Shown: positions 24,841 through 33,006, numbered from the stretch's first letter. The stretch is DNA of 64,000 nucleotides from Candidatus Bathyarchaeota archaeon (GCA_963806645.1 CAWDYQ010000003.1:44327-108326), one strand, 5' to 3'. Numbers and translations: made by a program. The notes: generated from the sequence alone by a model not told the origin.

Positions 24841-25218
24841 TCACCATTTTCGCTTTGTGTCAATCTTTTTTAAGAGTTTGTCAAGCATTTTGCCTTTTTC
24901 CAATAATTCTTGTTTTAAAATCGATTTTCCAATTGGACATAGTTCATCAACTATCATACCTTCATTTATCAGATATACAACAGGATAGATTTGGCAACCC
25001 TCTGGTCTATCCTCATATATTCGGCATTTCTTATCACTACGGTTGTAGAAAAAACAATACCCGTTAACATTCTTGAGCTGGGTTATATTATCATTCAGAA
25101 CCGTGAACTCTTCCAAGCAAAAGCCCTTCCCTTCTAATCTTTCGACATCATCTATAGAAAGCTCCATCATCGTTTCTTCACAACATAATCCACAATTTGA
25201 GCAACGCAAATTAACCAT
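24841..25218 (-). CDS. YkgJ/UPF0153-type cysteine-cluster protein
   Basis: CSNCGLCC ... GYCFFYNRSDKKCRIYEDRPEGCQIYP. Confidence 0.7.
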   Translation of the reverse strand: MVNLRCSNCGLCCEETMMELSIDDVERLEGKGFCLEEFTVLNDNITQLKNVNGYCFFYNRSDKKCRIYEDRPEGCQIYPVVYLINEGMIVDELCPIGKSILKQELLEKGKMLDKLLKKIDTKRKW

Positions 25219-27961: not shown

Positions 27962-28300
27962 ATGAACTTGAAGATAATTTTGGGCGCGATTATAGTTGCT
28001 GTTCTTTTCTTTTTAGGAATTATTTTTGCATTCGCTTCGGTGTATGCGAGTTCAAGATTAATTGTTGCTGGTTTGTTTTTTGTTGTTGGTTTTGGAATCA
28101 TATATTACATTACCAGAAAGCCTAACGTTAGTATTCAAAGATTGGAGTTTTCTGGAAAGATGAAAGCTGTTGCATTGAAATGTCCAAATTGCTCAGCTTC
28201 TATTAATTCAAATATGATTAAGATTGTTTCCGGAGTGCCGTATGCTACTTGTGATTATTGTGGTCATACTTTTGAAGTGGTTGAGGAGCCAAAATGGTGA
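27962..28300 (+). CDS. Two-TM membrane protein with C-terminal C4 zinc ribbon
   Basis: CPNC...CDYC; stop overlaps start of next gene by 7 nt. Confidence 0.7.
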   Translation: MNLKIILGAIIVAVLFFLGIIFAFASVYASSRLIVAGLFFVVGFGIIYYITRKPNVSIQRLEFSGKMKAVALKCPNCSASINSNMIKIVSGVPYATCDYCGHTFEVVEEPKW

Positions 28301-29913
28301 AATTTTCTGCCTTTTTGGTTATAATTATTGTTGGGTTAACATGTATTTCATTTATTCCACAAGTTGATGCCCAAAGACAATATTTTTTTGGTCAGGAATG
28401 GGCGCAAGTTTGGATTAGACCAGATGGTTCTATTGATCTTTTTTACAATGTTAGCTTAACACTCGATTTTGGTCAGGAAATTAATTGGATAAGCATTGGT
28501 CAACCTAAAGGAGATTTCACCATTGGATCTGCTGAAGACCAGTTTGGGAACACATTAGAAACGTCTGATATCAGTTCCGGAAGTGACTACAAGGTTAGGG
28601 TTAACCTTGATTCTCCTTTACAAGCTGGACAAACAATTTGGTTTACTTTGCTTACGAATGTTGCTCACATGATTTACGTGGATGAAACTAATCCAGGAAA
28701 TGATGGAATGCAATTCACTTTGTCATGGTTTTCAGAAGTAGGTATTGAAGATGCACGAGTGCTTATTGTTTTGCCTCCTGGAATTGCTGAAAGTGAAGTT
28801 AAAACAGGTTCACTATTTTGGAATAACATCCAGTATGAGGATGATAGGTTAGCGGTTTATTGGGAAAAGCAAAATCTTTTGCCTGATGAAAGATTTTCAG
28901 TTGGAGTTTCTTATCCAAAACAAGAGGGATGGGCCTCTTTCACTGAGACCTCTGATGGTTTAGGGAGTTTTTGGCCTTTATTGGTGTTTGGAGTCGTTGG
29001 TGTAGTGTTTGTTTATGTATTTTTTATTTTTCGAAAGAAGCCTTACAAAAAACCCACAATGGGTATTGAATGCCTTGGAGTTGTTAGGGGTTTAACTGCT
29101 GTAGAGGCTTCTTATCTTTTGGATTTAAAACCACCACAGATTGTAACTGAGATTTTGTATAGTGTTCTAAAGAAAAGGGCGGTATGGGTTGAAAACACGT
29201 CTCCGTCTCTTAAGTTTAGGATATTAGAACCCTTTCTTAACAAGACGGGAACGACAGATAATCCATTGAGGTATTATGAGATTGATTTTCTTAACGCAAT
29301 TAAAGATGAAGGCTCTCTGGATGAAGAGAAACTTGCTTCAACAATTATGTTTGTTCAATCTACTGTAGAGGAAAAATTGAAAGGATATTGTAGACGGGAC
29401 ACAGTTGACTATTATCGAAAGATTGTGGAGAAAGCGTGGGGTCAGGTTGAAGCAGCTGGAACAGGAGAATTAACTTCCAAAGCTTATGATGAACAGTTAC
29501 TTTGGTTGTTTTTGGATCCAAAAGCTTCAGATCGAACTCAAACCGTTTTTAGCAACAGGGTTTTTGAGCCTGATCCGATTTGGTTTTGGTACTGGTATTC
29601 TTATAGGTATTATTCGCCAAATCCCACTTACAAACCCAATATTGGAATTCCATCTCAAGGGCAAAAGCCGCCTACAATTCCTGGTGCAGATTTTGCTAAT
29701 AATATAGCTACTGCGATAGAAAAGAGTGCTAATAATTTTGTTGTAAATATGGAAAAATTTGCTAATTCCATAGTTCCCATGGGACCAAAACAAAAATCAT
29801 CTAACCAGCCAGTGCAAAAAAAAGCCAAGTGTGTATGTGCATGTGCTACCTGTGCTTGTGCATGTGCTTGTGTTTCATGCGCCTGTGCATGTGCTGGAGG
29901 CGGAGTAGGATAA
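28294..29913 (+). CDS. DUF2207-like single-pass membrane protein with C-terminal (Cys-Ala)n tail
   Basis: Signal peptide, DUF2207-like N-domain (VWIRPDGSIDLFYNVSLTLDFGQEINWISIG...), TM FWPLLVFGVVGVVFVYVFFIF, tail CVCACATCACACACVSCACACAGGGVG. Confidence 0.8.
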   Translation: MVKFSAFLVIIIVGLTCISFIPQVDAQRQYFFGQEWAQVWIRPDGSIDLFYNVSLTLDFGQEINWISIGQPKGDFTIGSAEDQFGNTLETSDISSGSDYKVRVNLDSPLQAGQTIWFTLLTNVAHMIYVDETNPGNDGMQFTLSWFSEVGIEDARVLIVLPPGIAESEVKTGSLFWNNIQYEDDRLAVYWEKQNLLPDERFSVGVSYPKQEGWASFTETSDGLGSFWPLLVFGVVGVVFVYVFFIFRKKPYKKPTMGIECLGVVRGLTAVEASYLLDLKPPQIVTEILYSVLKKRAVWVENTSPSLKFRILEPFLNKTGTTDNPLRYYEIDFLNAIKDEGSLDEEKLASTIMFVQSTVEEKLKGYCRRDTVDYYRKIVEKAWGQVEAAGTGELTSKAYDEQLLWLFLDPKASDRTQTVFSNRVFEPDPIWFWYWYSYRYYSPNPTYKPNIGIPSQGQKPPTIPGADFANNIATAIEKSANNFVVNMEKFANSIVPMGPKQKSSNQPVQKKAKCVCACATCACACACVSCACACAGGGVG

Positions 29914-29926
29914 AGGAGATTTGATT

Positions 29927-30034
29927 ATGGGTTTTGTAAGTAAGATTTTTCGCAGATCAAAAATTCCTCAAGGAAGATTCACATATAGAGGTGAAGGCGA
30001 TTTTGCTAGGTTTAGCTCTTCAGCTTCGGGTTGA
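29927..30034 (+). CDS. 35-codon ORF with strong SD overlapping the rSAM start (separate peptide or frameshifted true N-terminus)
   Basis: GGAG 8 nt upstream of ATG; MGFVSKIFRRSKIPQGRFTYRGEGDFARFSSSASG. Confidence 0.3.
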   Translation: MGFVSKIFRRSKIPQGRFTYRGEGDFARFSSSASG

Positions 30035-31274
30035 ACCTGACGGTAATGGACTTTTGATTATTAATGCGAATACAGTTTTGTTCTTAAATGAGACATCTAC
30101 AGCTTATGCATATTATTTTATGCAGGGTTTGAGTACCGAAGAGGTTGTTTCCAAGATTAAAGGTATTTTTCGGGTTAAAGAAAGGCAGGCAAGGGCTGAT
30201 TACGAAAAGTTGGTTTATTCTGTAAGTACTTTGGCCCAGACTGAAGAAGTTGATCCTATATCTTTTCTCGATCTAAAGAAGATTGAGCCTTTTAGTCAGG
30301 AGTATTCTGCGCCTTTACGTGTTGATTTGTCGCTTACTTTTAGGTGTCAGAATAGTTGTGTTCATTGTTATGCTGGGGGATCGCATGAAACTGATGAGCT
30401 AACGACTAGTGAATGGAAAGAGGTTATTGATCGGCTTTATCAGGTTGGTGTTTTTATTTTAACGTTTACTGGTGGAGAACCAACTTTAAGGGAGGACTTG
30501 CCTGAGCTTCTTAGTTATGGACAGAATAAAGGTTTAGTGACAGGTCTCATTACTAATGGAAGAAACTTAACTGATAAGAAATATGTTCAGATTTTAGAGG
30601 AGTCTGGGCTTGATTTTGTTCAGGTAACTCTGGAGTCTCATAAGCCGAAAGTTCATGATTTGATGACAGGCATTAAAGGAAGTTGGAACGAAACAGTAGC
30701 AGGAATAAAGAATTTGATTCCAACAAAGATTTACACAACTACAAACTCGACTTTGAGTAATCATAATGCAAAGGATTTTCTTGATACTGTAGATTTTATT
30801 AAAGAATTAGGAGTTGCTGCTTTTGGATGTAACAGTTTGATTTATTCTGGAAAAGCAAAAGATGTTGTTGAAGATTTTGTTTTTCCTCTTGAAGATTTAA
30901 AGATTCTTTTGCCAAAAGTTCAGGATAAGGCAGCTAAATTGGGACTAAAGTTTTTGTGGTATACTCCAACCCAATACTGTAAGTTTAATCCAATTAAGCT
31001 TGGTTTGGGTATAAAATCTTGTTCAGCGGCAATGATTAACATGTGTGTTGGACCGAACGGGGATGTGTATCCTTGCCAGAGCTATTTTGAAAGTTTGGGT
31101 AATATCTTAAAGAGTGACTGGAAAAGCATCTGGAATAATCCTTTGGCTGTTAGAATTAGAAACAGAGAGTATGTAGAACCAAAATGTAAAGAATGTCCCC
31201 AATTGCAGATCTGCGGAGGAGGGTGTCCCCTTGAGCTACAAAACAAGAATCACATTTGCTCTCAAAGTGGATAA
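29991..31274 (+). CDS. Radical SAM / SPASM-domain peptide-maturase-like enzyme with N-terminal PqqD-like RRE
   Basis: RRE-like VEPDGNGLLIINANTVLFLNETSTAYAYYFMQGLSTEEVV; CQNSCVHC (Cx3Cx2C); SPASM NGDVYPC ... CKECPQLQICGGGC. Confidence 0.88.
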   Translation: MKAILLGLALQLRVEPDGNGLLIINANTVLFLNETSTAYAYYFMQGLSTEEVVSKIKGIFRVKERQARADYEKLVYSVSTLAQTEEVDPISFLDLKKIEPFSQEYSAPLRVDLSLTFRCQNSCVHCYAGGSHETDELTTSEWKEVIDRLYQVGVFILTFTGGEPTLREDLPELLSYGQNKGLVTGLITNGRNLTDKKYVQILEESGLDFVQVTLESHKPKVHDLMTGIKGSWNETVAGIKNLIPTKIYTTTNSTLSNHNAKDFLDTVDFIKELGVAAFGCNSLIYSGKAKDVVEDFVFPLEDLKILLPKVQDKAAKLGLKFLWYTPTQYCKFNPIKLGLGIKSCSAAMINMCVGPNGDVYPCQSYFESLGNILKSDWKSIWNNPLAVRIRNREYVEPKCKECPQLQICGGGCPLELQNKNHICSQSG

Positions 31275-31465: not shown

Positions 31466-32254
31466 TTGATTGAAGCCATGTTAATTTGGGAGAGGCAACT
31501 TGAAAAAATCAATTCTTTGCGTATGCAGATAGCTGAAAGAAAAGAGAAGAATGAAGGTTTGCTTCGGTTTGATCGTTGTACCATTAGAGCAAGTGATGTT
31601 GCTGGACAATACTATTGTGAGAAAAAGATTGAGTTGGAGTATCTTTATGGTGAAGTGGAAACTGAAACAAAAAATCAGGGAACACAGTGTCATGAAAATC
31701 TAGTTGAAGGCGCCGAAACAGTGGATCAGGAAGAGCTTTGGAAAACTATTTACGGTAAAGAACCTGTGTTGGCAATGGAATGGTTGCTCCTAGCAGATTA
31801 TAACGATATTATTTTGGCGGGTCAACCAGATTCAATATTGTTTGAAAATGGAGTTCCATTAGTTATTTTTGAGTATAAATTTTCAAGAAGTAAAAGAACT
31901 TATCCTAGTTATCATGTTCAAGCCGGATTTTATGGGCTTTTATTGAAGAATCTTGGATTTGACACCCAAAAACTATTTTACGCAATAGTTGTTGCCGACA
32001 GAAGAGCAAAACATGATCCCAAACTTAGAGACAATGTTTTAGAAATAGTAAAGAATAATGGACAAAAGAAGGCAATACTGCCTATTGAAAACGCTATAGT
32101 CTATATTAACGAGTTTGATGAACAAGAGGCCAAAGCAAGTCTTGACTGGGCAATTCATTTTTGGAAAAAACAAAGAGAAGCCATATCAACTAAAAACTCC
32201 AACAAATGCCGAGTCTGCGAATATGAACAAGAGTGTAAAAAACTGATTTTTTAA
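31466..32254 (+). CDS. Cas4-like PD-(D/E)XK nuclease with 4-Cys cluster (no CRISPR context)
   Basis: N-terminal Cys (QYYCEKK), D-x13-EYK (QPDSILFENGVPLVIFEYK), QAGFY, C-terminal CRVCEYEQEC (Cx2Cx5C). Confidence 0.75.
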   Translation: MIEAMLIWERQLEKINSLRMQIAERKEKNEGLLRFDRCTIRASDVAGQYYCEKKIELEYLYGEVETETKNQGTQCHENLVEGAETVDQEELWKTIYGKEPVLAMEWLLLADYNDIILAGQPDSILFENGVPLVIFEYKFSRSKRTYPSYHVQAGFYGLLLKNLGFDTQKLFYAIVVADRRAKHDPKLRDNVLEIVKNNGQKKAILPIENAIVYINEFDEQEAKASLDWAIHFWKKQREAISTKNSNKCRVCEYEQECKKLIF

Positions 32255-32355: not shown

Positions 32356-33006
32356 GTGGAGAATAAACCAATGAGCAAAACAATCTGGTTAATAATTCTA
32401 TGTATTGTGGCTTCTGTACTAACATGGTTTCTTGGCAGTGATCAAATAGTAGATTACCTTGTGTTTAGTGGAGAAAATTTATTAAAAGGAAGAGTTTGGA
32501 CCGTAATTACTGGTTTATTTCTCCATGCTGATCCAACTCATCTGATAGGTAACATGGTGTTCTTTTACATTTTTGGGAATACCATAGAAAAAGAGTTGGG
32601 AGATAAATGGGTCTTGATTCCCTTCTTTGTTGGAGGAGTGGCATCTTTTTTGTTGAGTACATTATTTTATGATCCCACAGTATCCATGGTTGGAGCTTCA
32701 GCGGCTATTTTCACTTTGACTGCAATCGTGATGCTTTTAAAGCCGCTACAATTCTCGTTCTATTTCTTGATGCCCCTCGGTTTGGTGGCGATTATTTATT
32801 TTTCATATAATCTGTTAGCAGCTCAGATGGGTATAGAAGGAAGTGTCTCATATATTGGGCATATAATCGGTTTTTCGATTGGTGTTCCTTTTGGAATAGC
32901 AAGTAGTAAAGATTGGCACAAAAATTTGCTTATAACTGCATTATTGTTTATGATCTATCTATTAGTGATCTGGATTGTATTACCAGCTATTGGAATTAAC
33001 ATTTAA
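32356..33006 (+). CDS. Rhomboid-family intramembrane serine protease
   Basis: 6 TM, HADPTHLIGNM, GASAAIF (GxSxx) and IGHIIGF catalytic His. Confidence 0.85.
   Translation: MENKPMSKTIWLIILCIVASVLTWFLGSDQIVDYLVFSGENLLKGRVWTVITGLFLHADPTHLIGNMVFFYIFGNTIEKELGDKWVLIPFFVGGVASFLLSTLFYDPTVSMVGASAAIFTLTAIVMLLKPLQFSFYFLMPLGLVAIIYFSYNLLAAQMGIEGSVSYIGHIIGFSIGVPFGIASSKDWHKNLLITALLFMIYLLVIWIVLPAIGINI

Follow-up and report, generated by a model that had tools for sequence, protein, structure and literature searches.

What does a radical S-adenosylmethionine (SAM) enzyme act on when the gene beside its own encodes a full-size membrane protein and not a short precursor peptide? This question is raised by a 64,000-nucleotide (nt) stretch of DNA from Candidatus Bathyarchaeota archaeon (GCA_963806645.1 CAWDYQ010000003.1:44327-108326), the whole of which is called the window here, and within it by a cassette of three genes at positions 27962-31274. 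The first gene encodes a small zinc-ribbon membrane protein, the second a 539-amino-acid (aa) membrane protein that ends in a run of cysteines spaced by small residues, the (Cys-Ala)n tail, and the third a radical-SAM/SPASM enzyme with a recognition element of the kind known from peptides that are ribosomally synthesized and then post-translationally modified (RiPPs), the RiPP recognition element (RRE). These genes form a conserved three-gene membrane module, as is evident from their order, their domain content, their linkage and the selection that acts on the tail. We propose, at just short of an even chance, that the tail of the membrane protein is the substrate of the enzyme; RiPP-type recognition and radical chemistry thus appear to have a membrane protein of full size as their target.

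An initial annotation of this DNA had described three same-strand open reading frames (ORFs) with overlapping or very short junctions, and all three were found at the positions given there. Genes 1 and 2 meet in the sequence ATGGTGA, where stop and start overlap, and gene 3 is followed by an AT-rich spacer of 190 nt. ORF and hydropathy analysis, with motif positions for gene 1, likewise bore out the description of the first product as a 112-aa protein with two transmembrane (TM) helices and a C4 zinc ribbon, and of the second as a 539-aa protein with an N-terminal signal, one TM helix and a Cys-rich end. The radical-SAM cluster motif and the SPASM end ascribed to the third product were recovered by Pfam and by the positions of the cysteines, and its gene was confirmed as well, with a 5' end that had been truncated and is extended below. 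At the DNA level the window is matched most closely by metagenomes of marsh, estuary and marine sediments. The features of the cassette are the following.

27962-28300, + strand: gene 1, zinc-ribbon membrane protein of 112 aa (ORF, hydropathy and motif positions).
28181-28261, + strand: zinc ribbon of gene 1, of the C4 type and putatively cytoplasmic, CPNC...CDYC (sequence; weak Zn_ribbon_4 and MJ0042 matches; Cys pairs kept in distant loci).
28283-28297, + strand: C-terminus of gene 1, EEPKW followed by the stop (same in archaeal and 7-Cys-type loci).
28294-29913, + strand: gene 2, predicted type I membrane protein of 539 aa (ORF; overlap of 7 nt between its start and the gene 1 stop).
28372-28953, + strand: predicted beta-sandwich ectodomain of gene 2, about aa 27-220, after a signal peptide at aa 1-26 (AlphaFold2 (AF2) and Foldseek).
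28969-29034, + strand: single TM helix of gene 2, aa 226-247 (hydropathy and AF2).
29041-29667, + strand: conserved, putatively cytoplasmic domain of gene 2, with a winged-helix-like segment RGLTAVEASYLLD, helices and the W/Y-rich IWFWYWYSY (invariant or near-invariant alignment columns).
29668-29778, + strand: leader-like conserved segment of gene 2, aa 459-495, PTIPGADFANNIA...FAN, putative RRE docking site (family conservation).
29830-29910, + strand: (Cys-Ala)n tail of gene 2, CVCACATCACACACVSCACACAGGGVG, aa 513-539, candidate core and substrate (homologue conservation and codon analysis).
29927-31274, + strand: gene 3, enzyme with RRE, radical-SAM and SPASM domains, 448 aa after removal of 1 base (uncorrected ORF from GTG 29991).
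30018-30248, + strand: PqqD-like RRE of gene 3 (family profile, Pfam PqqD and AF2).
30345-30368, + strand: CxxxCxxC radical-SAM motif of gene 3, CQNSCVHC (sequence and Pfam).
31014-31271, + strand: SPASM domain of gene 3 (Pfam PF13186, 4.5e-11, and Cys positions).

Linkage and distribution of the module

A scan with one genome per species retrieved 75 loci, 72 of them from Bathyarchaeia. The enzyme gene lies directly downstream of the tail-protein gene in every one of the 72 Bathyarchaeia species loci, and on the upstream side the next gene is that of the zinc-ribbon protein in all cases where the contig extends so far. Homologues of the zinc-ribbon protein stand 5' of the tail-protein gene in about 70 of these loci; they do so in distant loci also. 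A look-up started from the enzyme returns the same gene order. Across the Bathyarchaeia loci, identity amounts to 59-77% for the enzyme and 43-63% for the membrane protein. Given the vertical inheritance of the module, its unbroken linkage in Bathyarchaeia and the higher conservation of the enzyme relative to the membrane protein, the pattern resembles that of a housekeeping function rather than that of a patchy antibiotic cluster.

The module is also found at a greater evolutionary distance. A metagenome scan with the 7-Cys tail type, a variant described below, yielded 21 loci, and among the informative distant loci the enzyme is present in 13 of 17 (L075-L082 and L092-L096), at 36-51% identity to that of the window. 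The membrane proteins of the distant loci, which include types with 7-9 Cys in the tail, Methanoregula and a bacterial bin, are 23-35% identical to the window protein. Most of these loci have the enzyme downstream of the tail protein, and the zinc-ribbon gene is upstream wherever the contig reaches; the Methanoregula locus (L075) has the reversed order, with the enzyme upstream of the tail protein, and in L094 two genes stand between the two. The expectation that tail-bearing homologues would travel with this clade of enzymes, raised with the initial annotation, is therefore borne out by 72/72 Bathyarchaeia and 13/17 distant loci, and with regard to the opposite case that it had named, a tail common in DUF2207 proteins without a radical-SAM neighbour, no tail type demonstrably without the enzyme was found, the four loci that show none being cut short at one or both flanks. 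In addition, one marine metatranscriptome contained four 151-nt contigs (depth 2, 90-99% identical) that fall on 29268-29611 and 30122-30403, a weak hint that relatives of the membrane-protein and enzyme genes are transcribed, which is too weak to show an operon.

Selection on the (Cys-Ala)n tail

The tail of the window protein carries 10 Cys within aa 513-539. Of the 120 best homologues, which reach down to 60% identity, 118 are full-length proteins, and each of these has the identical 10-Cys type, the other two being fragments, one truncated at its C-terminus and without the tail, the other truncated at its N-terminus and with it. The DNA that encodes the tail differs in each of 75 sequences compared (74 loci and the window); all synonymous codons are used, and the ten Cys, seven Ala, V15, S16, G24 and G25 never change. 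Summed over pairs, 37334 synonymous codon differences stand against 3446 non-synonymous ones. Since 75 distinct DNA sequences encode the same invariant residues with such an excess of synonymous change, selection acts on the protein and not on a DNA repeat. A microsatellite or an assembly artefact as the source of the tail is ruled out by the same codon analysis.

Among distant relatives, tails with 5-10 Cys occur. The types comprise the archaeal 10-Cys tail, ...GGGG-CACACACAGCACACAGGGR, which is the commonest, CACACACVSCACACACAGGGGCT and CACACAGCACACACAGGGR; in the 7-Cys type a poly-Gly/Ser linker precedes the tail (...GGGGGG-CACACACAGCACACAGGGR). The Cys block is internal in P0264, P0299 and L075, where 25-90 further residues follow it. 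The Ala or Gly kept strictly between the cysteines would suit acceptors or packing more than the mere binding of metal, and together with those after the cysteines they fit small acceptor residues.

With regard to its physical character, the segment at aa 511-539 (29824-29910) is as hydrophobic as a TM segment on the Kyte-Doolittle scale, and the AF2 model has a low-confidence helix at 515-534.

The enzyme and its recognition element

Pfam identifies a Radical_SAM domain (PF04055, 2.6e-23) and a SPASM domain (PF13186) in the enzyme, the SPASM cysteines Cx2Cx5Cx3C being contained in CKECPQLQICGGGC at 31185-31226, with further Cys upstream and downstream. The PqqD-like RRE that had been read from the sequence at the outset found its confirmation in the family: the family profile of the N-domain matches the lasso-peptide RRE TfuB1 (6jx3_B, E=1.1e-5), and 10/11 family N-domains match Pfam PqqD (best 5.9e-7), with a paralogue above the cutoff. 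When the window enzyme was scanned singly with Pfam, its N-domain did not match PqqD at E<=10; the AF2 model of a close homologue has beta strands followed by three helices, which is consistent with RRE topology. The RRE is shared by the archaeal and 7-Cys types, and its presence and conservation imply a peptide or protein ligand. By its domain content the enzyme matches the class of RRE-dependent radical-SAM/SPASM peptide maturases, the candidate for a co-encoded substrate being aa 459-539 of the membrane protein, which is strictly co-conserved.

The best PDB sequence matches of the enzyme are SkfB (1.6e-18) and SuiB (1e-13), followed by BlsE and PqqE. An AF2 model of a close homologue, with a predicted local distance difference test (pLDDT) score of 60, returned SkfB (3e-11) and SuiB (1e-10) as the leading full-length Foldseek matches, then PqqE and CteB, and we count this nearness of fold to SkfB (a thioether enzyme), SuiB, PqqE and CteB in favour of a modification of the tail. 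The enzyme stays below every curated NCBIfam cutoff, the best score being 145 bits against 500 for AhbD. The initial annotation had allowed that the enzyme might fall inside a characterised clade of cofactor or sulfatase maturases, and it reaches no curated model of such a family, with NirJ2 at 141 against 500, PqqE at 119 against 381 and MftC at 119 against 265. PADLOC defence models gave generic viperin-core matches for the enzyme and nothing for the other two proteins.

The true start of the enzyme gene, as judged by 448-aa homologues, is ATG 29927, which lies 13 nt past the stop of gene 2 with AGGAG in front of it. This ATG opens a 35-aa frame at 29927-30034 (MGFVSKIFRRSKIPQGRFTYRGEGDFA...) that, in the window, runs into the GTG-started ORF (29991) in a different frame. 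In other loci the 35-aa peptide is in frame and continuous with the enzyme, and the frame-corrected protein of 448 aa has homologues, likewise of 448 aa, that match it from end to end (100%). An extra base is present at 30007/30008, where the window reads GCTAGG and every related contig that crosses the site, from four metagenomes, reads GCTGG or GCAGG; none of these contigs is identical to the window. Apparently two alleles were joined here in the assembly, a real frameshift being the alternative. Because the product of the 35-aa ORF forms the N-terminus of the enzyme in homologues, we rejected it as a precursor peptide. No other conserved small ORF that could be a precursor is present in the cassette, which we count in favour of the tail as substrate.

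Loci of the 7-Cys type also encode a paralogue of the enzyme (L077 4808-6190, L079 5110-6324, L080 11468-12895 and L094 2628-3974). It keeps a PqqD-like RRE (above the Pfam PqqD cutoff in L077) but has neither CxxxCxxC nor the SPASM cysteines, and in L077 and L080 it begins with a membrane segment. These signatures mark it as a pseudo-enzyme, which may be a further subunit for recognition.

The membrane protein

The product of gene 2 has a hydrophobic N-terminus at aa 1-27, an ectodomain of about 190 aa, a TM segment at about aa 221-249 by hydropathy (aa 226-247 as a helix in AF2) and a C-terminal half of about 290 aa. The TM helix is directly followed by RKKPYKKP, which by the positive-inside rule places the C-terminal half in the cytoplasm, and we infer a type I protein whose C-terminal half and tail are cytoplasmic.

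More than 1684 homologues exist, and an exhaustive profile search grouped the family into 775 clusters at 50% identity (E<=1e-3). In Pfam and NCBIfam scans neither the window protein nor its distant relatives belong to any family. The label DUF2207-like, which the initial annotation had attached to the protein, stands in part: the window protein itself matches neither Pfam model (PF09972 and PF20990) even at E<=10, and among 80 diverse relatives DUF2207 was matched weakly by three (best 5.5e-5) and DUF2207_C by four (best 1.2e-4), which suggests remote kinship at most. The window protein and the DUF2207 proteins (PF09972/PF20990) have the same overall layout, in which a signal peptide is followed by an ectodomain of the beta-sandwich kind, a TM segment and, on the cytoplasmic side, a region whose end is of low complexity and rich in Gly; as described, however, DUF2207 proteins have no (Cys-Ala)n block and no radical-SAM partner.

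The ectodomain is the sole part that AF2 models with confidence (pLDDT about 70-87). Unlike the DUF2207 label, its top Foldseek matches point to Ost1/ribophorin I (8pn9_E, 1e-11) and to the N-domain of M1 aminopeptidases. At the sequence level, the family profile gave nothing significant against PDB sequences, ribophorin I appearing at E=0.63. Ost1/ribophorin I is a subunit of the eukaryotic oligosaccharyltransferase, and its alignment with the ectodomain continues across the TM helix and into the cytoplasmic portion, which is modelled with low confidence.

The architecture of the family is variable. Some members, of about 770-840 aa, have a duplicated ectodomain (P0269, P0293, P0301, P0326 and P0329), and others (P0272, P0278 and P0303) have the ectodomain alone and end in a PEF-like motif with a hydrophobic anchor behind it, as do the sorting signals of archaeal surface proteins.

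The zinc-ribbon partner

In the product of gene 1, one hydrophobic block (aa 1-52) represents the two TM helices by hydropathy, and the Cys pairs are CPNC at aa 74-77 and CDYC at aa 97-100. Against Pfam and NCBIfam the protein gave weak Zn-ribbon matches alone. Every complete copy, whether of the archaeal or the 7-Cys type, terminates in EEPKW and a stop, even where the genes do not overlap. The pattern E[EDQ]P[KR]W-stop is present in 80/96 loci, the distant loci with EEPKW including L076, L079-L081, L093 and L094. In the Methanoregula locus the EEPKW end is absent, and the enzyme and the tail are retained. The conserved end may be a docking motif or a candidate second substrate.

The tail protein of the Methanoregula locus (L075 4640-6145) contains two TFIIB-type zinc ribbons in its cytoplasmic part and 25 residues after its Cys block; by its sequence it may be a fusion with the zinc-ribbon partner.

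Proposed mechanism and relation to known systems

The scheme that we infer, from topology and docking site to substrate, chemistry and physiological role, would take as substrate the last 80 or so residues of the 539-aa type I membrane protein rather than a free peptide. The conserved segment PTIPGADFANN...FAN (aa 459-495), of which PGADFANN is common to the archaeal and 7-Cys types in the family alignments, would behave like a leader and dock on the RRE. The enzyme would then cleave SAM reductively, the 5'-deoxyadenosyl radical would take hydrogen from small residues (Ala, Gly, Val or Ser) among the ten Cys, and the Cys sulfurs would be bonded to those carbons to give sactionine-type thioethers. 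The product would be a compact cross-linked knob, possibly metal-binding, that remains on the membrane protein, which in turn would work with the translationally coupled two-TM zinc-ribbon protein. Thioether crosslinks are, by analogy, the most likely chemistry, and our confidence in them is lower than in the tail as substrate.

This analogy is provided by the hairpin sactipeptide systems StsB/StsA and BlaB/BlaA. StsB converts the CxCxC-x4-GxGxG core of StsA into three nested Cys-to-Gly alpha-carbon thioethers (Cys2-Gly15, Cys4-Gly13 and Cys6-Gly11), and the product is a compact, protease-resistant hairpin (Precord et al., 2023; PMC10288494). The likeness lies in a radical-SAM/SPASM enzyme with a PqqD-like RRE and in a core of alternating Cys that is followed by small acceptors, the window tail ending in CACACAGGG where StsA has its CxCxC...GxGxG core. 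The differences are considerable, however. StsA is a short free precursor, whereas the window motif sits on a 539-aa membrane protein; the window tail has its 10 Cys in three blocks, unlike the StsA core; the RRE is fused to the window enzyme but for StsB is a separate protein, StsC; and the Sts and Bla systems belong to actinobacterial secondary metabolism, whereas the window system is a conserved archaeal core module.

SkfB, the maturase of the sporulation killing factor, and SuiB/StrB, the Lys-Trp cyclase of streptide, are the best sequence and full-length structural matches. Like the window enzyme, they begin with a peptide-binding domain, continue with a radical-SAM barrel and close with a domain for auxiliary clusters. 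Identity to them is only about 20%, their NCBIfam cutoffs are not reached, and their substrates are short secreted peptides.

Radical-SAM/SPASM enzymes of the SCIFF type act on Cys-rich C-terminal cores, and QhpD, with the subunit QhpC, and the anaerobic sulfatase maturases (anSME) act on whole proteins. CteB (5why) and anSME (4k39) are among the fold matches of the window enzyme, although the curated models for these classes are not reached, and we know of no (Cys-Ala)n or membrane-protein substrate in the SCIFF/ranthipeptide, QhpD or anSME systems. The searches made of the literature and of the family libraries returned no description of this three-gene system, in keeping with the initial annotation, which knew of none with this architecture. 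The enzyme class is known; what appears to be undescribed is that the substrate is part of a full-size membrane protein, together with the motif (Cys-Ala)n, the partner that ends in EEPKW and the core-gene behaviour in Bathyarchaeia.

Alternative explanations

Several observations weigh against the tail as a substrate that is crosslinked by the enzyme. Models of thioether synthases are not reached (AlbA 94 bits against 850, SkfB 86 against 300 and StsB 85 against 625), and AF2 confidence is low for precisely the cytoplasmic half and the tail of the membrane protein. If the tail folds as a hairpin with a two-residue turn, Cys comes to lie opposite Cys and not opposite Ala, an arrangement that would suit a metal site or disulfides equally well. 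The linkage loci were retrieved through the membrane protein, so that the linkage test runs in one direction, and no enzyme is present in the available flank of L072, L083, L085 and L089, in each of which one or both flanks are cut short. Finally, the zinc-ribbon partner bears a second invariant C-terminal motif, EEPKW. Most of these points are taken up by one or another of the alternatives, which we discuss in the order in which they withstand the evidence.

The geometry of the hairpin, with two-residue spacers that make Cys face Cys, leads directly to the possibility that the tail is an unmodified thiolate site, metallothionein-like for Cu/Zn or of the Fe-S type, and that the enzyme acts on a lipid, a cofactor or another protein, its RRE serving only to dock it to the membrane complex. 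CxC repeats are the hallmark of metallothioneins, and the tail carries them. The enzyme core also resembles enzymes with non-peptide substrates, with BlsE, GDGT-MAS and AhbD/NirJ among its best matches, and a housekeeping-like, vertically inherited module is unlike typical RiPP clusters. However, the residues between the cysteines are nearly always Ala, which is atypical of metallothioneins, a conserved RRE normally signals a peptide substrate, and the best full-length structural matches, SkfB and SuiB, are RRE-bearing RiPP maturases. The cassette moreover has no other conserved gene that could supply a different substrate. We consider this explanation unlikely, although it deserves to be taken seriously.

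The second explanation gives the role of substrate to the EEPKW end of the zinc-ribbon protein, for example through a Lys-Trp carbon-carbon crosslink as in streptide (StrB/SuiB) or through a crosslink to the tail, and leaves the Cys tail with a separate role. It would account for the invariance of EEPKW-stop from Bathyarchaeia to the 7-Cys-type loci, also where genes do not overlap, and for SuiB, a Lys-Trp cyclase, ranking second in both sequence and structure matches. The NCBIfam KxxxW-cyclase and WgkB models align with the enzyme, the former including the N-domain, but their scores are far under the cutoffs, and Lys and Trp are adjacent here, in contrast to the known KxxxW or WGK motifs. The catalytically dead paralogue of bacterial-type loci, with an RRE of its own, could mean that there are two ligands to be recognized. 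Conservation of KW-stop in Bathyarchaeia is partly forced by the overlapping MVK start of gene 2, however, and the Methanoregula locus, which keeps the enzyme and the tail without EEPKW, favours the tail as the common partner. We consider this explanation improbable.

A third possibility, that the membrane protein is a giant precursor whose tail, once modified, is cleaved from it and becomes a free Cys-rich peptide by release or export, shares the tail as substrate but not its fate. Long leader domains are known in other RiPP classes, and the poly-Gly/Ser linker ahead of the 7-Cys tail recalls Gly-Gly leader cleavage sites. The archaeal type has no Gly-Gly site at that place, though, and the cassette has no conserved protease or transporter. 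The internal Cys blocks of P0264, P0299 and L075, with their 25-90 following residues, a tail that is cytoplasmic by its inferred topology, and a strict vertical conservation unlike that of secreted peptides make release of the tail very improbable.

Hardly any weight can be given to the last alternative, in which the hydrophobic tail is embedded in the membrane, as a tail anchor or as an end that carries a lipid, and the enzyme is a mere functional neighbour. The Kyte-Doolittle profile of aa 511-539, the low-confidence AF2 helix at 515-534 and the KKAK that precedes the tail speak for it. Against it, the 7-Cys block has only about 15-19 residues with poly-Gly on its flanks and is too short and too flexible to form a TM helix, and the linkage with an RRE enzyme would be left unexplained.

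Neighbouring genes and variant loci

Beyond the three genes, the neighbours in the window (a phosphodiesterase, an AsnC-like, a Cas4-like and a rhomboid protein) are not conserved across loci. The Cas4-like PD-(D/E)XK nuclease is encoded at 31466-32254 and the rhomboid protease at 32356-33006. A CxxCxxCC (YkgJ-type) zinc/iron-chelating protein at 24841-25218 is likewise not conserved beside the cassette in other genomes.

The CACACAGCACACACAGGGR subtype shows its own arrangement. L083 has two tail proteins in tandem (1-423 and 424-2319), and downstream an ORF with a SAM-dependent methyltransferase domain occupies the radical-SAM position in L083 (2259-3086) and L085 (2378-3106). In L089 the ORF at the equivalent place (1909-2817) has a C-terminus that resembles these methyltransferase ORFs. 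The upstream flanks of these loci are cut short.

Significance for Bathyarchaeia and for the protein family

To our knowledge, work on RRE-dependent radical-SAM enzymes has dealt almost exclusively with the small, secreted natural products that they make, and the module suggests that the logic of an RRE combined with radical chemistry is used on a full-size membrane protein as well. With the tail as the preferred substrate, we tentatively put forward, at less than an even chance, that radical RiPP chemistry serves here as a housekeeping modification, in which a thioether ladder or a thiolate/Fe-S site would be built on the tethered (Cys-Ala)n module of an Ost1/DUF2207-like protein, and in which the EEPKW end of the zinc-ribbon partner may also be modified or linked to the tail. 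Such a modification would belong to the core gene set of Bathyarchaeia, with variants in methanogens and bacteria.

The lineage that carries the module is a widespread group of uncultured archaea, and two of the three proteins are without a Pfam or NCBIfam family despite hundreds of clusters at 50% identity. The tail is a compact candidate substrate for which an established protocol exists from the work on StsA. The module could possibly yield a new protein-borne crosslink or metal site, and it may also show what the DUF2207-like proteins whose tails are of low complexity, a large family, do in the cell.

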